From assembly GCA_020720805.1 (NCBI GenBank), contig DYNZ01000003.1:35927-99926 (forward strand): a DNA stretch of 64,000 nt, in the 5' to 3' direction. The notes beneath the pieces are model-generated. The model ran no database searches. It had not been told where the DNA came from and was given only the letters and a program-made list of their open reading frames with translations. This document shows positions 643 through 40,936 of the stretch, piece by piece. Position numbers and translations under genes: made by a program. The stretch's first letter is position 1; every line of letters starts with the position of its first letter. The stretch comes from Leptospira biflexa. Its GTDB lineage: Bacteria > Spirochaetota > DYNZ01.

Positions 643-3600
643 TTAGGGTAAAAGGGGAGGATTTTGGAAGAGTAAAAGAGATGACCAGTTTGAAGGATGG
701 TCATTTCTCTGCTTCAAGCGCAATTGTGTCTGGTGCATAGATGCAAGAACTGTCTGCCGTCTCAATTTTCGATAAAAAGCAGAGACAAATATTGCCATAT
801 TTTTATCAGAGTTTTTCAAACTGATAATGTACTGACCGAACCCTGTCTGATGCATTAAATTGGAAAGATAACATCTCATCAAAACTGAGGAAGTGGCCTG
901 GGTAGGCCAATTGACGTTGGAAAAGAATGCCATGCTTCGTTCGGCTCTCCTGGTGTTCCAGATATCTCGGAAATATAATTTATCGTTTTGAGGCTCTTCA
1001 TCACTAAGCCAAAAGAAAGAGTCCTCAGGTTGTTGATAACGAATCTCCCCAGGTAGGGCAATATGCCATATCTTTCCGGAGAGCAGAATATCAGTCAGAC
1101 TTGCTTTTGTTATATCATCGTCGGTAAGAATGGTTTTATTTTGGAATAGGTTTTGTATTAAATCCACTTCGGTCGCTGTGTGGCTTTGGTTGGTGATGAT
1201 TTTACTATTGCTAGGTGCGAAGGCAGCACTTAGATTCCATTCTAAGGGATATTGCAGGTTTTGCATAGATATGAAATGGAATAAGCTGTGAATATGGTAG
1301 ATTACATATTCGTCTATTAAATATTTTTCTTGGCTGAGCATCAATGATGCGAAAGGGAAAAAGGTAAGATCAGAAGATGATAGGAAACCGATATTTTTTA
1401 TTTTTTCTTTTTGAAGCGTTTCCTGGATCCCTGTAAGTAAAATTTTTGTTAACTCCTGCATCTCTTTATCTGCAAAGGTTTTTGTGGAATCCTTAATAGC
1501 GGGCAATACAGAATTAATTTTGGAAAGAATAATCGCATACTCTTCTTTTATAGGGAAAAAGGAAATTTGTTCATGGCTTAGATAAACACCAAACAATTTG
1601 TTTTCAACTTTTTGAAAATAAACGACAGCGTGGTCCGGATTCATGGACTTAAAAGCATTACTAAAATTTTTTTCCTGAAGTAGCATGGCTATAGGAGAGG
1701 AGGTGGTATTTATTTCGTTCTGTTTCTTCATCTCCTGAATATAGCGATGTCGGGTGACAAACTGCTGCGATAAATCTGTGGCCGTATTTTGATAGTAGTA
1801 GGTATCATTGGCAAGATTTGTGACTTTAACAGAGCTTCGTATTTGACTGAAACTGATATTGTGGAATTGGGCAATAAATTCAGATTTCAGTTTGATGGCA
1901 AAATCGGATTCCTGTGATTGTGTCTTTTGGGCAGTAACTGGGTAAGGTAACATCTGCAATCGTTTCAGTGATTCGGAAAAGAGCACAAACTGGACAGGTT
2001 TCTTGTGTTTTTCAAAAATATGTGATGCAAATGTAACTGTTTTTTCCATGAAATGGGGTGGAAAGGGAAAGAAAAGAACCGAATACCAGTGCATGGTGTC
2101 TTTATCGTGAGCATAGACCTGAAAAACATCGATGAGGTTTTTCCAGAAGGTGGGGAAATTATAAGAAAACAATCTTGCTTCTGCGATTTTGTCTACCCAT
2201 TGTAGGTATTGAAATTGGGGAGCATGGTTGTGATAGTAGCGATTCAAATTAAGATCTCTCTGCATCATGGCATTTTTACCAGATTTGAGAGATTGCAGTA
2301 GTTGTATTTTATAGGATATCAATTGAAGATGTTCCAAACTGTTTTTTTGTGCCTCTGTTGATGCCTGGAGTAGATAAGCTTTGGATTCAAGTTCGTTTCC
2401 CTGGTAGAGTAGGATTAATGCCATCAATAGTTTGGCGCGAATGCGTATATCGGAAATTATTTTTTTGTCTGTCTCGATAATTTCTTTTAGATAGGCTATG
2501 GTTTTCTCATGATCTTTTTGGAAAAAAGATGTCATGCTCAAAAGATAATAGATGTACTCCTTGGAAAAGGTATAGGGAAACAGAGGATCAAAATGGGTTG
2601 AGCCAAAGGATATATTCGCTTTTAATATGTTTTTTAGTAAATTTTGATACACGGATTCGGCTTTTTCATACTTGCCGGCTAAAAAATAGGAGTGACCAAT
2701 AAGCGCTTCATTTACCAGAAAAGGGAATTGGCTTTCTTCAAGAATTTTTTTGTTTTTATGTAAGGCAACAAATGCCTGGTCGTATAACCCGTTATCGAGA
2801 TACAATCGTGCCTGCTGATTGTAAAAAATAGTGGCAATTTCTCTGTTGTCCTGAAGTAATTTTTCGTGATGGGATTCCATTTGCGATAGGATTTTGTAGA
2901 GTTGGTGGAATCCGCCAAGATGCACATACACCTGTATCAGGCTGGCAATGCTGCTTTGAAGTAAATGCTGCTTTTTATTGGAAAAAACAAGTTCAACATA
3001 TTTTTTACTAATGTCAGAATAAAGATTCATTAACTGCGGTGTACGGTTTGTGCTATGAATTAGAGCATAAAATTTGCCAATTCTCTGAAATCTTTGAAGT
3101 TGATCATCAAGGTCATCGAGGAGATTGTATTTTTGCAAATGATCCTGAATTTTGACTTCCGTAAAAATTAAATCGTGATATGCAGTCTGAGTTTGAGCCT
3201 TTTCATAAAAATCTGAGTAATCAAGTAGGATGTAGAGTTGAAATAGGGCGAATTTTTTCTGATCAAGTTTGGAAAAATAGGAATTAGAAAGCTGATATAG
3301 GCGAATGGCCTCTCTGAATTGCAGATGCTTTTTGGAGTGTTGTGCTGCAAAAAAATAGAAAAGAAAAAAATCTTCTGCCATTAAGCTATCAGATTTAGCA
3401 TATTTCAGGCTGAAGCCAAGCTTTTGGTAAATTGATGGGGGCAGATTTTGATCACCTTGTACTTCGGCAATCCGTGCTTTTAGCAGCAGGAGGTGAAAAG
3501 AGATTCGCTGTTCTTTGCTTGTTCCAGAGTTTACGTTGAATCTTTGTAGGGTTGCATTAGTTAATAGCTCTTGGATCTGCCTGGGAAGCTGCTGGGGGTT

Positions 3601-3795
3601 TGAAACTTCAATCTGATGGTTCAGAGATTTTAGTGTAGTAAAAAGGTCAAATCCCTGTTGCTGAGCGAGCGCACTTTGGGAAAAATTTAAAAATAGTAGT
3701 GCAAGAGTTATTTGCCAAATGAGCCATCGGTTTTTGTGTATGCCTGGATTAATTACTCTTTTTCTGAATTCATTCATGCTTGCTCTCAGGCACAT
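643..3795 (-). CDS. large secreted TPR-repeat protein with C-terminal CHAT-like (caspase-fold) domain, probably catalytically inactive
   Basis: 1050 aa. Hydrophobic signal-like segment after MNEFRKR (start more likely ~3777). Long run of TPR-like helical repeats. The C-terminal ~250 aa match the CHAT pattern (IWHIALPGE ... FGQYIISLKNSDKNMAIFVSAFYRKL ... HPSNWSSLLLFQNP), but the HG and SAC catalytic positions read LPG and FSN. Confidence 0.7.
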   Translation of the reverse strand: MCLRASMNEFRKRVINPGIHKNRWLIWQITLALLFLNFSQSALAQQQGFDLFTTLKSLNHQIEVSNPQQLPRQIQELLTNATLQRFNVNSGTSKEQRISFHLLLLKARIAEVQGDQNLPPSIYQKLGFSLKYAKSDSLMAEDFFLFYFFAAQHSKKHLQFREAIRLYQLSNSYFSKLDQKKFALFQLYILLDYSDFYEKAQTQTAYHDLIFTEVKIQDHLQKYNLLDDLDDQLQRFQRIGKFYALIHSTNRTPQLMNLYSDISKKYVELVFSNKKQHLLQSSIASLIQVYVHLGGFHQLYKILSQMESHHEKLLQDNREIATIFYNQQARLYLDNGLYDQAFVALHKNKKILEESQFPFLVNEALIGHSYFLAGKYEKAESVYQNLLKNILKANISFGSTHFDPLFPYTFSKEYIYYLLSMTSFFQKDHEKTIAYLKEIIETDKKIISDIRIRAKLLMALILLYQGNELESKAYLLQASTEAQKNSLEHLQLISYKIQLLQSLKSGKNAMMQRDLNLNRYYHNHAPQFQYLQWVDKIAEARLFSYNFPTFWKNLIDVFQVYAHDKDTMHWYSVLFFPFPPHFMEKTVTFASHIFEKHKKPVQFVLFSESLKRLQMLPYPVTAQKTQSQESDFAIKLKSEFIAQFHNISFSQIRSSVKVTNLANDTYYYQNTATDLSQQFVTRHRYIQEMKKQNEINTTSSPIAMLLQEKNFSNAFKSMNPDHAVVYFQKVENKLFGVYLSHEQISFFPIKEEYAIILSKINSVLPAIKDSTKTFADKEMQELTKILLTGIQETLQKEKIKNIGFLSSSDLTFFPFASLMLSQEKYLIDEYVIYHIHSLFHFISMQNLQYPLEWNLSAAFAPSNSKIITNQSHTATEVDLIQNLFQNKTILTDDDITKASLTDILLSGKIWHIALPGEIRYQQPEDSFFWLSDEEPQNDKLYFRDIWNTRRAERSMAFFSNVNWPTQATSSVLMRCYLSNLMHQTGFGQYIISLKNSDKNMAIFVSAFYRKLRRQTVLASMHQTQLRLKQRNDHPSNWSSLLLFQNPPLLP

Positions 3796-3917
3796 TATCC
3801 TTGATTCTCAGCAATCTCTGTCTCTTTTCAGAAAATGAAGAAATTATCCATTTTGCAATCTAATTTTTTATTTTAAGCCGGAATAGGGAGATTTTTCCTG
3901 GATTCCAGAAAGGTCTT

Positions 3918-4625
3918 TTGATGAATCGAGATTTTTTTATTGCGTTAGACTTTTCCACCAGCGCAGAGGCGATATCTCTTGTAAAGATGCTTCCGACGGA
4001 GCATCTTTATTATAAAATTGGTATGGAGTTATTTTTTCGTGAAGGCGAACGTATTTTGTATACTTTGGCTGAAGCAGGGAAGAGAGTATTTCTTGATCTA
4101 AAGCTTTATGATATTCCAAATACTGTTTCCAGAGCCATCGCATCCCTGGCGGCCTACCCTTTTTATATGGTAAATGTTCATCTACTGGGAGGCGAGATGA
4201 TGGTCAGGGAGGCGCTTGTTGCCGCTCACCATTTGTCCTTTCAACCTAGAGTCATAGGTGTAACGATATTGACTTCCTATGATATAGATGCGCTAGCTGC
4301 GATATTCCCGGGAAATGAAAGAATTTTACCTGAAGAGTGGGCGCGCTATCTTGCCGTTCAGGGCAAACAATGGGGAATTGAGGGCGTTGTATGTTCACCC
4401 CATGAGGCTGCTTTAATTAAAGAAAGCTGTGGTAATGATTTTCTAACCGTAACTCCGGGAATCCGGTTTAGCGATGAGAAAGCTCATGATCAGAAGAGAG
4501 TCGCGACACCGGAGCGTGCGCGTAGAGAGGGGTGTGATTTCCCTGTGGTGGGTCGCGCTATAACCGAGGATTTCTCCAAGGCGGAGTCCAATTACGAGAG
4601 ATTTCTTTTTGCCTGGAATGTATGA
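3918..4625 (+). CDS. pyrF: orotidine 5'-phosphate decarboxylase
   Basis: 235 aa. DLKLYDIPNT (DxKxxDIxxT) active-site motif and IALDFST N-terminus. Confidence 0.9.
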   Translation: MMNRDFFIALDFSTSAEAISLVKMLPTEHLYYKIGMELFFREGERILYTLAEAGKRVFLDLKLYDIPNTVSRAIASLAAYPFYMVNVHLLGGEMMVREALVAAHHLSFQPRVIGVTILTSYDIDALAAIFPGNERILPEEWARYLAVQGKQWGIEGVVCSPHEAALIKESCGNDFLTVTPGIRFSDEKAHDQKRVATPERARREGCDFPVVGRAITEDFSKAESNYERFLFAWNV

Positions 4626-34721: not shown

Positions 34722-36305
34722 TTATCTCTTTCGCCAGAATGGGCCATAGTGCTTTCCTGGATAGAAGGAGAAGTAGCGTTCCTCCTTTGGCATCTCTCTT
34801 ATAAAGATATTCGCAGAGCTGCGCTCAAACGGGGGTGTGGTCGGTGATTTTCCATAAAACTGCAGAGGTAACCATTGCAGATGAAAAAAAGGATCTTTTC
34901 CTGTTCGGCCATGAAATCCCTGGTAGTAGGTTTTTTCTGATTGTAAAGGATCTTTGCCTTCATCGCTTTTCACCAAACCAGGTTCCTGCCACCTTACTAT
35001 TTTTTTCCATTCTAGAGCCCGATGTTCGGAGAAATCGAGTAAGAAATTTTGGTCGGCTCCTAAGGCAACACTGGCCAGCAACTGACCTGGTAAATTCCAG
35101 TTTTGCGGTGGGGTGATCACCTTAAATTTCCCCTTTTTCATCAGAGGAAACCTATCCTTGGCAAAACCTAAAGCATTGATCATAGACGATTCGGTTTTTA
35201 CAGGAATACTTATAGCTTGAAGATCTTTTTGGTTTAGGGGAATATTGGGGATAGTCACATTCGAACCGTCAGACCAGAATCCCTTGGCCACATAGAGGAT
35301 AGGATGCCCATTCACCGAGTTGATGTTGTCCCAATGTGTATCGACCAAAATGGAGTTGTGTCCGATTGTAGCAATTCGAATTGGCTGAAATTGAGGATCC
35401 AGAAGAACGCTATATCCCTGCCAGCCTCCTTGATGCTGGTTTCCAAGATACGATGGGCCTGAGGTGGAATCATACCAAAACCAGTAGGATAAAACATAGC
35501 CCTTGGAATTTTTATTATCATACCAGTAATAGTCCGGTTGGAAATCCTCCAATCGACCGGTCTGCTCGCCAGTATAGTGAGTGGCCATGGGGCGTATATG
35601 ATAATAGAGAAAGGGTGAGCTCAACTCCTTTAATTTGGCGTGCTTGCTTGAATCTCCAAGCCGTAGATAGGATCCCTGATGGGGTGGGGCTCCGGCACGG
35701 TTTTTCTTTGCCACCTGATAGATTTCTTTACTGTGATAAAAGAAATATTTTTCAATATTGGATGGCAAGAACTCCTTGTCCTTTGCAAAAACCAATATCG
35801 GCGCATATTTAACAGCCACAGCCTCCGCAGTACTTGATGAAATGGGGTTTTCCATGGGTAAGAGGCGAATATCGCGAACGGTTTCCACCGGAATAGAGGG
35901 AAGAGCATTTTTGTGGTTGAGATACTCTTTGGTAAACTCCCAGAAAGGGTTATATCCTGGCGAGTACCGCAGATACTTATTTTGAAATTGCTGTTGGTAA
36001 TTGATCCAGGCTATTTGTGTGGCCACTATTTTTTCGGGAGCAATATCGAGAATTATATTAAAAAAATAGAGACCATGGTCGTTAGAGCTTGTTTGGTAAA
36101 TTTTATAATCGATTTTTCCCTGAATATCCTTAAAGAAAATACGAAGCTGCAACAGTGCTCCGTCTACCTTCCCTCCGCGTTCGTCATAAATAAATCCTTC
36201 TCTGCGAAATTGGTATGGCTGTAGCGCTTGTACAGCTGATAGAGTGCAAAAAAGAAATAGGAGTGTGTACCATAATTTTACATAGATTTTATTGGATTTC
36301 ACCAT
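34722..36305 (-). CDS. secreted hypothetical protein with Vps62/DUF946-like N-terminal region
   Basis: 527 aa. Signal peptide. VKYAPILVFAKDKEFLPSNIEKYFF resembles the DUF946 (Vps62) signature. Trp/Tyr-rich. Ends 7 bp before the pdxB start, so it is likely co-transcribed. Confidence 0.55.
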   Translation of the reverse strand: MVKSNKIYVKLWYTLLFLFCTLSAVQALQPYQFRREGFIYDERGGKVDGALLQLRIFFKDIQGKIDYKIYQTSSNDHGLYFFNIILDIAPEKIVATQIAWINYQQQFQNKYLRYSPGYNPFWEFTKEYLNHKNALPSIPVETVRDIRLLPMENPISSSTAEAVAVKYAPILVFAKDKEFLPSNIEKYFFYHSKEIYQVAKKNRAGAPPHQGSYLRLGDSSKHAKLKELSSPFLYYHIRPMATHYTGEQTGRLEDFQPDYYWYDNKNSKGYVLSYWFWYDSTSGPSYLGNQHQGGWQGYSVLLDPQFQPIRIATIGHNSILVDTHWDNINSVNGHPILYVAKGFWSDGSNVTIPNIPLNQKDLQAISIPVKTESSMINALGFAKDRFPLMKKGKFKVITPPQNWNLPGQLLASVALGADQNFLLDFSEHRALEWKKIVRWQEPGLVKSDEGKDPLQSEKTYYQGFHGRTGKDPFFHLQWLPLQFYGKSPTTPPFERSSANIFIREMPKEERYFSFYPGKHYGPFWRKR

Positions 36306-36636: not shown

Positions 36637-36984
36637 ATGGATAAAAAGAAACTCGAAAAATTTCATAAATTGCTTATGCAGGAGAAAGAGACCCTGCTGA
36701 AAGGGATTTTAACGGAGGATGTTCTCGAAAAGATTGGCGTGGAAGGGTCAGGGGATATTGTGGATGTGGCCAGCAATCTGTATGATACAGAATTTTTTCT
36801 ACAACTAGCGAGCCATGATCAGGAGACGATTCATCTCATCGATAGAGCTCTCGAGAAGATTGATGAGGGAACCTACGGTATTTGTGAAGGGACTGGCAAA
36901 CCAATCAAAGAGGCTCGCCTTGAAGCAATTCCTTGGACACCCTACAGTATCGAATACGCTCAGGAGCTAGCAAAGAAAAAATAG
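36637..36984 (+). CDS. DksA/TraR-family RNA polymerase-binding factor, zinc-finger Cys mostly absent
   Basis: The ORF-track start 36571 is a TTG. ATG 36637 has a GGAG Shine-Dalgarno and is more plausible (115 aa). Coiled-coil tip motif DIVDVAS (DxxDxA). The C-terminal region aligns with the DksA zinc ribbon but keeps only 1 of 4 Cys (YGICEGTGKPI ... SIEYA). Confidence 0.65.
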   Translation: MDKKKLEKFHKLLMQEKETLLKGILTEDVLEKIGVEGSGDIVDVASNLYDTEFFLQLASHDQETIHLIDRALEKIDEGTYGICEGTGKPIKEARLEAIPWTPYSIEYAQELAKKK

Positions 36985-36988
36985 TTGT

Positions 36989-37447
36989 TTAGTTAAAATA
37001 TTTTTTTAACAAGGCAATAAAATCTGGATCAGATCTTAAATAATTTAAGTCTCTGTCATTTTCTATCGCCTCTCTGTGTTGAAAGCCGTAACGTAATGCC
37101 AGCTCCAGATGGCGCAAAGCTTGTCCCTTCTCTTTTTTTAATGCCAAGGCGCAAGCAAGGTTATAATGTACAGCCTTAAATTCTGGATAAATTTCTAAGG
37201 TCTTTTTGTAATATTCAACCTCTTTGTCTAAAGATCCCTGTGAGCCATATAGATATCCAAGCTGCGCCAGGGAGTTGACATCTGTCGGTTTGGTTTTGAT
37301 ATGATTTTCCAGCTCCTGGATTTTTTTCGCAATTTGCGAATCCATTCCTGCCGGATTCTGATGGTCCACTTTTTTTAGCTCTCCGCTTGAACATCCTCCC
37401 AAAGCAGTAAACACAATGATAAGGAAAAGCCATCTGGTGTTTTGCAT
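36989..37447 (-). CDS. TPR-repeat lipoprotein
   Basis: 152 aa. Lipobox LGGCSS. TPR-like repeats (LAQLGYLYGSQGSLDKEVEYYKKTLEIYPEF...). Confidence 0.65.
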   Translation of the reverse strand: MQNTRWLFLIIVFTALGGCSSGELKKVDHQNPAGMDSQIAKKIQELENHIKTKPTDVNSLAQLGYLYGSQGSLDKEVEYYKKTLEIYPEFKAVHYNLACALALKKEKGQALRHLELALRYGFQHREAIENDRDLNYLRSDPDFIALLKKYFN

Positions 37448-37468
37448 GATTAGCTCCTTGGTTATAGT

Positions 37469-38170
37469 TTATTGTTCCATTTCCTGCAGCAGGCGCGCTG
37501 GAATTTTCAGACCTAAACGCTGTGACCAGAAAATCAGTCTGATCCGAATGGATTTCATGTTCATGCGCCTGTCCCAAAGGGCACCAATACCAGAAAGTTT
37601 GGAATTTGGCTGAAGAATTCTCAGGAGCATTTTTTGAACTGTTTCCCCCTCTTTAGCCTTGCATTGCCAAAGTTGTTCGCCAATACTGAGAATGGTTTGA
37701 TTGGTGTTATAATTTTCGCGTATAATGAGGTCAATATCATGTTGAATCTGCTCTTCATCGGTACGCAACATAGCAGAGATGGTTTCCAGACGAAAAAAAA
37801 GGAATGATTCAATAAATTTTAGCATGAATTCTGCGTTTTCTTTTTTGGCTATCTGGTAAGTTTTGATCAAGCCATCGACCATCTGTAGGGTCAGAAAAGA
37901 GTATCTGGTTTTTCGTTCAACTTTGGCATGCCGGATATCGTTTAAAAAAGAGTTATGCTCGGATTTTCCATTTCGAATATAGAAAAATCTTAAATTGGTG
38001 ACGCAGTATCCCCTTGGCGTTTTGCTAAAATCGCTAAGTCCCATGTAGGAGTTGTCAGAAAAAAAAAGTAAAATCGTTTCTCCTCGCGAAAGAATTTCCT
38101 GTTTTTCTAGAAATTCCCGTATGGCCAATGGTATGTCGCTTTTTTTGCGAATAGAACCGGCTTTGATCAT
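37469..38170 (-). CDS. hypothetical protein, possible bacterial PH-like N-terminal domain
   Basis: 233 aa, no confident domain. Residues ~30-110 resemble a bPH/GRAM-like beta sandwich. Overlaps the upstream gene by 4 bp (ATGA). Confidence 0.5.
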   Translation of the reverse strand: MIKAGSIRKKSDIPLAIREFLEKQEILSRGETILLFFSDNSYMGLSDFSKTPRGYCVTNLRFFYIRNGKSEHNSFLNDIRHAKVERKTRYSFLTLQMVDGLIKTYQIAKKENAEFMLKFIESFLFFRLETISAMLRTDEEQIQHDIDLIIRENYNTNQTILSIGEQLWQCKAKEGETVQKMLLRILQPNSKLSGIGALWDRRMNMKSIRIRLIFWSQRLGLKIPARLLQEMEQ

Positions 38171-38859
38171 ACTGTTTTATTGTATTGCAGGGCTAAGGGT
38201 AAAAAACGGTTATGGGTCGTCTTGATGACCCGTTCTTCGCTGTTGATAAGATTGGAAATTTTTTGAAAGCCGCTTTCGATTTGGAAGGCCCAGATCTCTG
38301 CTGAAGCGTTTATCTCCTGAATTGGTATGGCAGGGTTATAACTCCAGGTAAAAGTTGGCTGGCTCTCAAGCCAAAGAGAAAGTGCCTTCCTTTCAGCTTC
38401 TAAGGTAAGCCCTGTATCGCATACCTTAATGTGGTTGCTATCAATTAATAATATGGCAAATCCGGCCATTTTATCAACATTTCCATTCTTGATGTAAATG
38501 ACACCATCTAATTTCTTGTCTCGGGCGATCTGAAAAGCCATCCAGTCTATATATTTTTCCCAGTCGCGGGGATTAATTTTTTTTGCTCTTTTTTCCAGCC
38601 GTTCCGTGTCGAGAAGAATGATAGATTTATCAAGAGGTTGAATTGTATCGGACAAAAAATTTATTAATGGATTATTGTCGAAAACGGTGGTTTGGAAAAT
38701 ATTTTCTGTTTCGGAGCCCTTCCAGTTTTGTGTCGCCGTAAAATTTTTTTGCGACTTTGGGGTGAATCGAAACGGAAAAAAGGGAGCCTGGTTTAATCTA
38801 TCGGAAAAAAGAGCATAGAATACCGGCTGGGTGATGGCTCGGGCGAGATAATCATCCAT
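38167..38859 (-). CDS. hypothetical protein
   Basis: 230 aa, no recognisable motif. First gene of a 3-gene minus-strand operon, downstream of a 430-bp AT-rich divergent promoter region. Confidence 0.5.
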   Translation of the reverse strand: MDDYLARAITQPVFYALFSDRLNQAPFFPFRFTPKSQKNFTATQNWKGSETENIFQTTVFDNNPLINFLSDTIQPLDKSIILLDTERLEKRAKKINPRDWEKYIDWMAFQIARDKKLDGVIYIKNGNVDKMAGFAILLIDSNHIKVCDTGLTLEAERKALSLWLESQPTFTWSYNPAIPIQEINASAEIWAFQIESGFQKISNLINSEERVIKTTHNRFLPLALQYNKTV

Positions 38860-39289
38860 AACATGACCTTATAAAACCTTTCGTATCGTTGCCAGAAACT
38901 TGACCGTCTATATTTTATACTTTTAGGCATTGTGTTTGCCGGCTTTGCCGGTACAGAAGAACTGTTATGTTTTTGTGAGGCAGTGAGAAAGGAACAGCTC
39001 TTTCTGAACGACCGTTATGCCTGAAAGTTGGTCAATTAATTATCATATAATGCGACATAAATTTGATTTTTTGTCAATCAATAAGAATAAAATTATGCAT
39101 TTTTTTAGAATTTTTTATCCGAAGTGATTTTTTTTGCGATTTACGCTTTTTGTATAATTTTCGCCTTGCCAGGGCGTTCATTTTCGATAAAATTTTTTAA
39201 ATGAATTGCACGTGCGTTAAATTTTGCATTACAGATAAGCTGTTGTAATGAACTCTTTTAAATAGGAACGCTTCAAGCAGGAACTGTTC

Positions 39290-40936
39290 ATGAAAATTTC
39301 AGAACCAGAGCCAATTATCTCTGCACTCGGGCAGGAGACCCGTGTTGCCGGGATTACCTTTCCGCACAGGGTAGGAATCATCGATATTGGCTCTAACTCG
39401 ATAAAGCTGAGAATCTATGAGATCATATCAGCGGATACCCAAAAGGTATTGTATGAGGATCGGGATATGATCCGCTTGGGTGAGGAGGTTTTTGTAACAC
39501 AGCATCTGCCGGCCTCAGCTTTTGCGAAAACGGTCGAAACGCTGGAATCCTACAAGAGAATATTGGAGAAGTTCGATACCTCAGAGATTGTCGTAAAGGC
39601 CACTTCCGCTGTGCGGGAAGCAAAAAATGTCAACTTATTCCTTTCCTATATAAAAAAGTACACAGGTATTTCCATTCAGGTTTTATCCGGCCTGGAAGAG
39701 GCTCAATATGTTTATCTGGCTGCTCTGAGCTCACTTGAGTTTCACAATCGGACGATTTTACTGATCGATATTGGTGGCGGTAGTACTGAGGTTTGTATTG
39801 CTACACAGCAGGCTTTGATTTTTTCTGAGAGCCTACCATTGGGAACAGTCCGGCTTACACAGACCTTTTTTGCCGACCACAATCCTTTGGAAAACTATCC
39901 AAGGGAAAAGGTAAGAACCATGGAGGTGTACTGCCAGAAGCAGGTAAAGCCGTTGCAGGTAATTTTTTCCCGGTACCAACCTGAATTCATTCTGGCGTTT
40001 GGAGGCACTCCTCATCACCTCGCCTTCGTTGCCCAGAAGCATAATATCGGTATCGAGAAGGAAGGTTGTCTTGGGATTCCATACAGGCATAATCGAGATC
40101 TGTTCGATACCTTTCTTCGTTCTAGTCCAGAAAAGATAGCCAGGATAAAAGGGTTAGAGCCCAAGCGAGCGGATATTGTACTTTCCGGAAGCCTTATCCT
40201 GAAAACGATAGCAGATCTCTCTGGAAATCTTGATATCCTTACTTCGCCAAAGGGTTTGCGAGAGGGAATCATGATGGAATATATCTTTAGCAGGATAAAT
40301 CCAAATATTTACGAAGAGAGGCAGAATGATTTTCGTTTGAAATCAGCCTATATTCTTGGGGAAAAGTTTTCTGTGAATCGAAATCATGCTCGCCAGGTCG
40401 AGCATCTTGCAACTAAACTATTTCATCAGCTCAAACCCCTCCATCATCTGGATCAGAGTAGCTTAATATTGCTCAGAGCAGCAGCCTATCTGCATGATAT
40501 TGGAATGATCATTAACTATAAGGATCACCATAAGCATTCTCAATATATCATTTCTCAGGCTATGCTCTCTGGTTTTACCCAGGAAGAGAAGGAGGTCATT
40601 GGATTAATCTCCCGCTATCATAGAAAATCGAACCCTAAAAATAGCCATACGAGTTATAAAAATCTACCTGAAATCCGAAAACAGGAGGTCGCGCAGTTGG
40701 CTGCAATTATTCGACTTGCCGATGCTTTGGATCAGAGCTACCAGGAAAATATCCAGGATGTCTCTTGCGTATTTGGAAAGGAGACCATTACCATGACCCT
40801 GCAATCGAAACCAGGGGCTGATTTGACGTTAGAAAAATGGGGAATTCAGCGCAAAAAAGCATTTGCCGAGTCTCTATGGGATCATGTGATTCATATACAA
40901 GATGAAAGTAATAAAGACAGCACAAGAAATGATTAA
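39290..40936 (+). CDS. ppx: exopolyphosphatase / guanosine pentaphosphate phosphohydrolase with C-terminal HD domain
   Basis: 548 aa. N-terminal actin-like ATPase fold motif IDIGSNSIKLRIYE. C-terminal HD motif (AAYLHDIGMII ... H). Confidence 0.85.
   Translation: MKISEPEPIISALGQETRVAGITFPHRVGIIDIGSNSIKLRIYEIISADTQKVLYEDRDMIRLGEEVFVTQHLPASAFAKTVETLESYKRILEKFDTSEIVVKATSAVREAKNVNLFLSYIKKYTGISIQVLSGLEEAQYVYLAALSSLEFHNRTILLIDIGGGSTEVCIATQQALIFSESLPLGTVRLTQTFFADHNPLENYPREKVRTMEVYCQKQVKPLQVIFSRYQPEFILAFGGTPHHLAFVAQKHNIGIEKEGCLGIPYRHNRDLFDTFLRSSPEKIARIKGLEPKRADIVLSGSLILKTIADLSGNLDILTSPKGLREGIMMEYIFSRINPNIYEERQNDFRLKSAYILGEKFSVNRNHARQVEHLATKLFHQLKPLHHLDQSSLILLRAAAYLHDIGMIINYKDHHKHSQYIISQAMLSGFTQEEKEVIGLISRYHRKSNPKNSHTSYKNLPEIRKQEVAQLAAIIRLADALDQSYQENIQDVSCVFGKETITMTLQSKPGADLTLEKWGIQRKKAFAESLWDHVIHIQDESNKDSTRND

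Follow-up and report, generated by a model that had tools for sequence, protein, structure and literature searches.

A conserved hypothetical gene unit of two orphan proteins and a TPR lipoprotein in uncultured Leptospiraceae-like spirochaetes

Three genes and their reading frames

Do two overlapping genes without recognizable relatives, together with the lipoprotein gene that follows them, form a genuine unit, and if so what could such a unit do? The question is raised by a locus in a 64,000-nucleotide stretch of DNA from Leptospira biflexa (GenBank assembly GCA_020720805.1, contig DYNZ01000003.1, positions 35,927 to 99,926 of the forward strand), referred to below, over its whole length, as the window. 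The initial annotation of this stretch described a three-gene operon made of two orphan genes, here called A and B, and a gene (C) for a lipoprotein with tetratricopeptide repeats (TPRs):

38859-38167, minus strand: gene A, 230 amino acids (aa)
38170-37469, minus strand: gene B, 233 aa
37447-36989, minus strand: gene C, 152 aa

We find A-B-C to be a solid "conserved hypothetical" unit, well defined, in an under-sampled clade. The coordinates of its ORFs (open reading frames), the ATGA common to the stop codon of A (TGA) and the start codon of B (ATG), the 21 nucleotides (nt) separating the B stop from the C start and the 430-bp AT-rich spacer upstream of A all match the first description exactly. 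A strong ribosome-binding site (AAGGAG) lies in front of C and the sequence AAGG in front of A; none was seen at the start of B.

The reading frames are those expected from codon usage. On a log-odds score trained on the 27 long ORFs of the window, the annotated frames of A, B and C reach 0.15, 0.15 and 0.21 per codon, respectively, within the span of the 27 training ORFs (mean 0.20, minimum 0.08), and the remaining five frames of each gene score negatively. The coding-frame signal is also present in the first 75 codons of A, the poorly conserved part of that gene.

Conservation of the A-B-C order

Ordinary searches left A and B as orphans, as had been claimed for them, with no family in Pfam, NCBIfam, PADLOC or PHROG. 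In a word-indexed search of 5.8 billion protein clusters each retrieved only itself, from two records of the same assembly that are identical to the window over 20.7 kb. An exhaustive phmmer search of 1.84 billion representatives with a concatenated A+B query returned three homologues of A (P0006, P0007 and P0008; 31-37 % identity, E-values of 4e-17 to 9e-13) and three of B (P0004, 38 % identity, E = 4e-39; P0005, 33 %, E = 7e-30; and a fragment, P0009), and nothing else credible. One further match (P0010, 1389 aa, E = 1.7e-4 over nine stretches) is a repeat-rich surface protein; it was rejected as an artefact of summed repeats. The contigs carrying the unit are as follows:

L005/L006/L007 (Logan ERR150877xx): A 259 aa, B 234 aa, C 155 aa (TPR)
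L004 (Logan SRR25425413): A 245 aa, B 228 aa, C 163 aa
L008 (NCBI GCA_964501965.1, "uncultured Leptospiraceae bacterium"): A 228 aa, B 230 aa, C 183 aa
L009 (JGI 3300037424): A 213 aa, B 228 aa, C 162 aa
L010 (JGI 3300038621): fragment with B, C, dksA and the start of the next gene

Each homologue's contig has the order A-B-C (L004, L005/6/7, L008 and L009), the L010 fragment starting at B. Conservation beyond this strain, which the initial annotation had made the test of its claim, thus extends to five further loci in at least four other lineages, and the three-gene unit of unknown function proposed there is genuine, with frames defined by codon usage and an order kept in all five of these loci. 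Between the strain variants L005 and L006 there are no substitutions in A, three synonymous and one non-synonymous in B, and two synonymous and one non-synonymous in C. A, B and C are real, selected and vertically inherited genes of one clade.

The genes of the unit and those around it differ in their pairwise identity:

A: 23-44 %
B: 33-47 %
C: 36-58 %
the ~530-aa protein encoded nearby (see below): 48-54 %
Ppx: 57-64 %
the DksA-like protein: 61-77 %
the PdxB-like protein: 34-41 %

As the flanking housekeeping proteins are 57-77 % identical, the block must be old and chromosomal. The spacing between A and B varies over five lineages (-4 nt in the window, -1 in L005, and +38, +56 and +109 nt), and gaps of 24-73 nt separate B from C in three lineages.

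The surroundings of the block have been rearranged more than the block itself. Upstream of A, ppx is found in the window and in L005, and a 309/329-aa gene with a PNP_UDP_1-like gene in L004 and L008; since the upstream flank differs in this way among lineages, A marks the boundary of the block. In GCA_964501965.1, a metagenome-assembled genome, the ppx locus (L003) is on a separate contig lacking the block, where it is preceded by a PilZ-like gene and gltB, and the block itself (L008) sits behind the 329-aa gene, which has no Pfam match, and a gene resembling those for futalosine hydrolase and MTA nucleosidase, an arrangement shared by L004. The rearrangement breakpoint lies directly upstream of A. 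Downstream of the block, the window, L005 and L008 have pdxB, which L004 lacks. The L004 locus also carries, a few kb upstream of the block (1904-4571), a vapBC pair, a Macro-domain gene and two radical-SAM genes, all of them absent from the window, L005 and L008 loci.

The proteins encoded by A, B and C

A is soluble and represents a family not described before; its tail varies, and its alpha/beta core is conserved. In the family alignment the ~75 N-terminal residues are variable and the core is conserved, with invariant residues at D84, R91, A92, I95, D105-W106-M107, Q110, G133 and E188-x-W190-A191. A scan of the sequence found no hydrophobic segment, signal peptide or membrane helix. The single sequence has no Pfam, NCBIfam, PADLOC or PHROG family above noise; the family consensus gave nothing above noise against Pfam, PADLOC and PHROGs; the family members taken one by one gave nothing consistent against Pfam at E ≤ 10; and neither the sequence nor the family profile matched any PDB sequence. 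The alignment of the A consensus with class IV aminotransferases is confined to the C-terminal third of the models, and at 12-16 bits against cut-offs of 260-277 the assignment to that family (or to aminodeoxychorismate lyases) was taken as noise. Among the weak matches from the searches, those to a protein kinase (E = 0.14), MecC and snoR113 were likewise dismissed as due to chance. A and B are not paralogues (BLASTP E = 0.78; hhalign probability 0.1 %).

B consists of two parts, which can be placed on the window as follows:

37814..38092, minus strand: bPH_3-like domain of B (residues ~27-119), from a family consensus match to PF14470
37472..37795, minus strand: C-terminal helical domain of B (residues ~126-233), conserved in the family alignment

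The protein is basic (pI 9.6 in the window, 9.4-9.7 across all orthologues), its family alignment has a mean column identity of 52 %, and a sequence scan found in it, as in A, no hydrophobic segment, signal peptide or membrane helix, which predicts a cytoplasmic location for both. As a single sequence B has no Pfam, NCBIfam, PADLOC or PHROG family and no PDB sequence match; its family profile found nothing in PDB sequences, or noise at E > 0.5; and a scan of metagenome contigs with the family alignment gave pattern matches only, with no relatives among them.

The first half of B is more informative. Against PF14470 (bPH_3) the hidden Markov model consensus of the N-terminal half gave an E-value of 3.4e-4 and 21.4 bits, below the gathering cut-off of 23, over model positions 1-92 of 95 (consensus residues 27-119 of B); the window B and five other members searched individually give no match to this model even at E ≤ 10. 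In the pleckstrin homology (PH) fold, seven strands form a beta sandwich with a C-terminal helix as its cap. Conserved in this half are the motifs D-I-P-L, G-x-x-(L/V)-T-N-(L/I)-R-x-F and F-(L/I)-N-(D/E)-(I/L)-R, the second of which, as G-x-x-L-T-N-x-R-x-F, we take to resemble PH/GRAM-type motifs. The suggestion in the initial annotation that B may begin with a PH/GRAM-like domain is therefore backed by a full-length consensus match, which is good but not conclusive support. The C-terminal half has no Pfam or PDB match above noise, by profile or by consensus, and its invariant residues include E165, L167-W168, A172, E176, R184, L198-W199, R209, L212, G220-L221 and P224. B can thus be described, on good but not conclusive grounds, as a basic soluble protein of two predicted domains, one bacterial PH-like (bPH_3-type) and the other a new helical domain.

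C was initially described as a TPR lipoprotein, and this description holds. Its TPR scores exceed the Pfam cut-offs (TPR_17, 33.9 bits against 24.4; TPR_8, 27.2 against 25.7), and it reaches 70 bits, with a cut-off of 32, against the NCBIfam model TPR_END_plus ("TPR end-of-group"). It runs from a signal peptide through the lipobox Cys (...ALGGC) and 2-3 TPRs to a C-terminus of the "TPR end-of-group" type. By inspection, the N-terminus reads LFLIIVFTALGG-C, with a lipobox-like LGGC, and a hydrophobic signal peptide ending in Cys is found in all six C orthologues. By these features C is a small exported TPR lipoprotein of an ordinary kind. Its matches to the PilW, Tgl, GltE and MamA models (17-33 bits, with cut-offs of 154-225) reflect generic TPR similarity. 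The idea that C is BamD-like, prompted by the small BamD proteins of spirochaetes, was dropped, no YfiO/BamD model being found at E ≤ 1.

Conserved neighbours downstream of C

Two further genes accompany the unit on the side of C:

36637-36984, plus strand: putative RNA-polymerase-binding protein of the DksA/yteA family, 115 aa, convergent with C
34722-36305, minus strand: secreted protein of unknown family, 527 aa, with a signal peptide

The product of the first scores 35.5 bits against zf-dskA_traR (cut-off 24.9) and 57-71 bits against the yteA, dksA and DksA_like models, below their equivalog cut-offs of 105-134, and has a single Cys in the zinc-finger region, where four (C4) are usual. Its gene and C lie tail-to-tail in all loci long enough to show it (the window, L004, L005, L008 and L010), with 4, 0, 7, 32 and 11 nt between the stop codons in the five loci, the value for the window being 4. 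A terminator scan found no terminator-like site between the two genes in the window, so that, with stops only 0-32 nt apart, the convergent transcripts should overlap.

The second gene comes next after dksA in every locus with enough flank, with orthologues of 525-569 aa carrying a signal peptide. Over four lineages these proteins are 48-54 % identical and share the invariant motif SYWFWYD..GPS.LGN.QG; the partial ORF at the end of L010 is 42 % identical to the start of the same protein. The 527-aa protein has no Pfam, NCBIfam, PDB, PADLOC or PHROG match, its family profile returned nothing or noise at E > 0.5 from PDB sequences, and a scan of metagenome contigs with the family alignment gave pattern matches only, with no relatives. 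It is a second, better conserved uncharacterised family of the same block, and as it is equally unassignable, A-B-C is not alone here in being uncharacterised.

A possible working of the unit

With genes that are real, conserved and fixed in order, and with the domains and predicted locations of their products described above, a tentative account can be given of what the unit does. A-B-C would be a vertically inherited, lineage-restricted chromosomal operon of a small clade of uncultured Leptospiraceae-like spirochaetes, and it is part of a conserved five-gene neighbourhood with the convergent dksA-like gene and the gene for the secreted ~530-aa protein. We infer that A and B may act jointly in the cytoplasm, where the basic PH-like domain of B could serve as a docking or ligand-binding module, for the membrane or for a small ligand, and its helical domain could provide the interface to A. 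C would be co-expressed with them as a periplasmic TPR scaffold for the same process, which may be envelope-related, but would not itself bind A or B, and the neighbouring secreted protein would probably belong to that envelope-related process as well. We regard this combination, a cytoplasmic A/B pair with a PH-like module and C as periplasmic scaffold of the same process, as a plausible working proposal that stops somewhat short of being probable.

Several observations weigh against it. The interaction of A with B is a candidate one. The overlap of the two genes is kept in just two of five lineages (the window and L005), with gaps elsewhere, and the step from tight coupling to a stoichiometric complex, which the initial annotation had taken, is accordingly a weak one. 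A and B are predicted to be cytoplasmic and C to be exported, and the operon has no membrane-spanning component. Gene order is the one line of evidence that links A and B functionally to C. The bPH_3 match is below the Pfam gathering score and comes from the consensus only. Finally, single-sequence AlphaFold2 models of A and B (pLDDT, the predicted local distance difference test score, of 35.7 each) were unusable and confirm no fold; Foldseek searches of these models against the PDB gave noise (best E-values 0.12 and 3.7, TM-scores of at most 0.29). The envelope complex of all three proteins suggested at first is unlikely as stated, given A and B without signal peptides, an exported C and an operon lacking a membrane-spanning partner.

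Common descent alone might also keep A, B and C side by side, as functionally unrelated genes that share a promoter or a chromosomal position. The difference in compartments between A/B and C would be expected in that case, the gaps of 38-109 nt between A and B and of 24-73 nt between B and C leave room in three lineages for separate promoters, and the window and L005 have much of their wider surroundings in common too, for example the series ppx-metX-metW-dsbA-gidB-parAB. Against this, the A-B-C order has outlived rearrangements that altered both flanks (upstream, ppx or the 329-aa and PNP-like genes; downstream, pdxB), and unrelated neighbours have usually been parted at a divergence such as that of A (23-44 % identity). 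We consider simple co-inheritance improbable, if far from negligible.

A bolder version of the proposed working would see new folds in A, in the C-terminal domain of B and in the ~530-aa protein, which together with C and the zinc-less DksA-like protein could make up a clade-specific, Leptospirales-like system, in which a cytoplasmic PH-domain sensor pair would be coupled to an effector that is secreted or sits in the envelope. Such a system would be unlike any in the bacteria studied so far. This seems to us unlikely, to about the same degree as co-inheritance.

The constant presence of the dksA-like gene suggests another possibility, to which we give still less weight, that of a regulatory module tied to DksA, in which A and B would be cytoplasmic regulators working with the convergent dksA-like gene or controlled through it. 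The basic helical C-terminal domain of B could, for example, bind nucleic acid or RNA polymerase, and the transcription units of C and dksA, which must overlap since their stops are 0-32 nt apart, could disturb one another. Such a module is consistent with the tail-to-tail arrangement in every locus reaching that far, with the lack of a terminator-like site in the window, with the basic character of B in all lineages, and with the position of the block in two lineages, where it is framed by dksA and by ppx, whose product is an enzyme acting in (p)ppGpp and polyphosphate metabolism. However, Pfam scans found no helix-turn-helix or other nucleic-acid-binding family in A or B, the neighbouring dksA may simply have been inherited in place, L004 and L008 have no ppx next to the block, and the lipoprotein and the secreted protein of the block would be left unexplained.

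A further reading, in which A and B would make up a toxin-antitoxin or anti-phage defence pair or some other mobile accessory module, is very improbable. It might be suggested by two small overlapping genes of no known family with a narrow distribution, by a GC content of 0.38-0.42, slightly below the surroundings, and by the vapBC and Macro-domain genes a few kb upstream in L004. Yet single sequences and family consensus have no PADLOC match and a best PHROG E-value of 0.075; tblastn against 72,556 plasmids and 50,697 phages gave no match, nor did scans of viral contigs; the chromosomal position beside dksA is the same in every lineage, and the divergence resembles that of housekeeping genes; the codon usage is that of the host; and the flanks contain no integrase, transposase or tRNA boundary. 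Nothing ties A, B and C to phages, plasmids or defence systems. The probability that remains after these readings belongs to something else.

Comparison with known proteins and systems

Returning to the proposed cytoplasmic pair with a periplasmic scaffold, its components can be compared with proteins of known kinds. Bacterial PH domains are structurally established (Xu et al. 2010, PMC2817789) but obscure in function. Proteins with PHb domains (PF08000) are small, soluble and bacterial, have a PH-like beta sandwich at their core, and are reported in that paper to form oligomeric rings. B is likewise small and soluble with a predicted PH-like domain, but PHb is a separate Pfam family that B does not match. 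The likeness is closer to bPH_3 (PF14470, YokE-like), with which the N-terminal half of B agrees in length (~95 aa), position and alignment over the full model, differing in its sub-threshold score (21.4 against 23 bits) and in the fused helical C-terminal domain of ~105 aa. To our knowledge, no function has been established for the bPH_3 family.

C resembles the TPR lipoproteins of envelope machines (PilW, Tgl, GltE and those of BamD type) in being a short lipoprotein made almost entirely of TPRs, but the genes for the partners in those machines are absent from its surroundings. As two overlapping small genes of unknown family, A and B recall type II toxin-antitoxin and other two-gene defence modules, from which they differ in the size of their products (~230 aa each), their chromosomal fixation and their vertical inheritance. 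We know of no multi-gene system with the composition of A-B-C, and nothing shows that these genes are a "system"; it is the A family that is undescribed, and a bPH-domain protein and a TPR lipoprotein are of known kinds.

If A and B do form a functional unit, two families would be added, that of A and that of B's helical domain, along with a new bacterial PH-domain architecture, all anchored to a reproducible context of dksA, a TPR lipoprotein and a secreted protein. Every carrier found so far is uncultured and Leptospiraceae-like, so that for now it is the annotation of that clade which would gain, with no bearing on a long-standing open question.

The region upstream of A

The spacer in front of A and the gene beyond it contain the following features:

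38860-39289: divergent intergenic region between A and ppx/gppA, 430 bp, AT-rich
39290-40936: ppx/gppA, divergent from A
38935-38942 and 38944-38951: TTTGCCGG, two copies, in the leader of A
39077-39072, A strand (minus): TTGACA element, with TG(T) 14-15 nt further on

With a GC content of 0.33 against 0.426 for the window, this spacer had been described as carrying several short direct repeats, a claim that stands only in part. The two copies of TTTGCCGG are there and form (38935-38951) a CCGGC-AAA-GCCGG hairpin, which is not kept in the homologous region of L005. The window holds five copies of TTTGCCGG where 2.5 are expected, and five or more were obtained in 8 of 100 shuffles, so that it is not clearly enriched. 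The other repeat, AGGAAC-N3-4-TTC, said to occur three times, has no match as written; when the pattern is loosened to AGGAAC-N2-6-TTC three sites appear in the spacer (38990, 39264 and 39279), the latter two coinciding with the ribosome-binding site and start codon of ppx. Neither of the short repeats is a conserved regulatory element. The idea of a riboswitch or other structured leader in front of A was rejected as well, the 189-nt leader folding no better than shuffles (z = -1.6) and having no Rfam match.

The TTGACA element has been kept better. TTGACA-N14/15-TG is found upstream of A in L005 (~7782) and L008 (~7177), with a degenerate TTGCAA in L004, and its distance to the ATG is 218 nt in the window, 219 nt in L005 and 81 nt in L008, the length of the leader differing between lineages. 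A palindrome, AATTAATT, follows just downstream of the element in the window and L005. Judged from its sequence, the element looks like a -35 box followed by an extended -10 with a weak hexamer, and may be a promoter or an operator; a simple promoter scan of the window did not call it. On the far side of the spacer, the next ORF after ppx/gppA, homoserine O-acetyltransferase-like and of uncertain start (380 aa in one public record, 389 otherwise), overlaps ppx/gppA by 35 nt (40902-40936).

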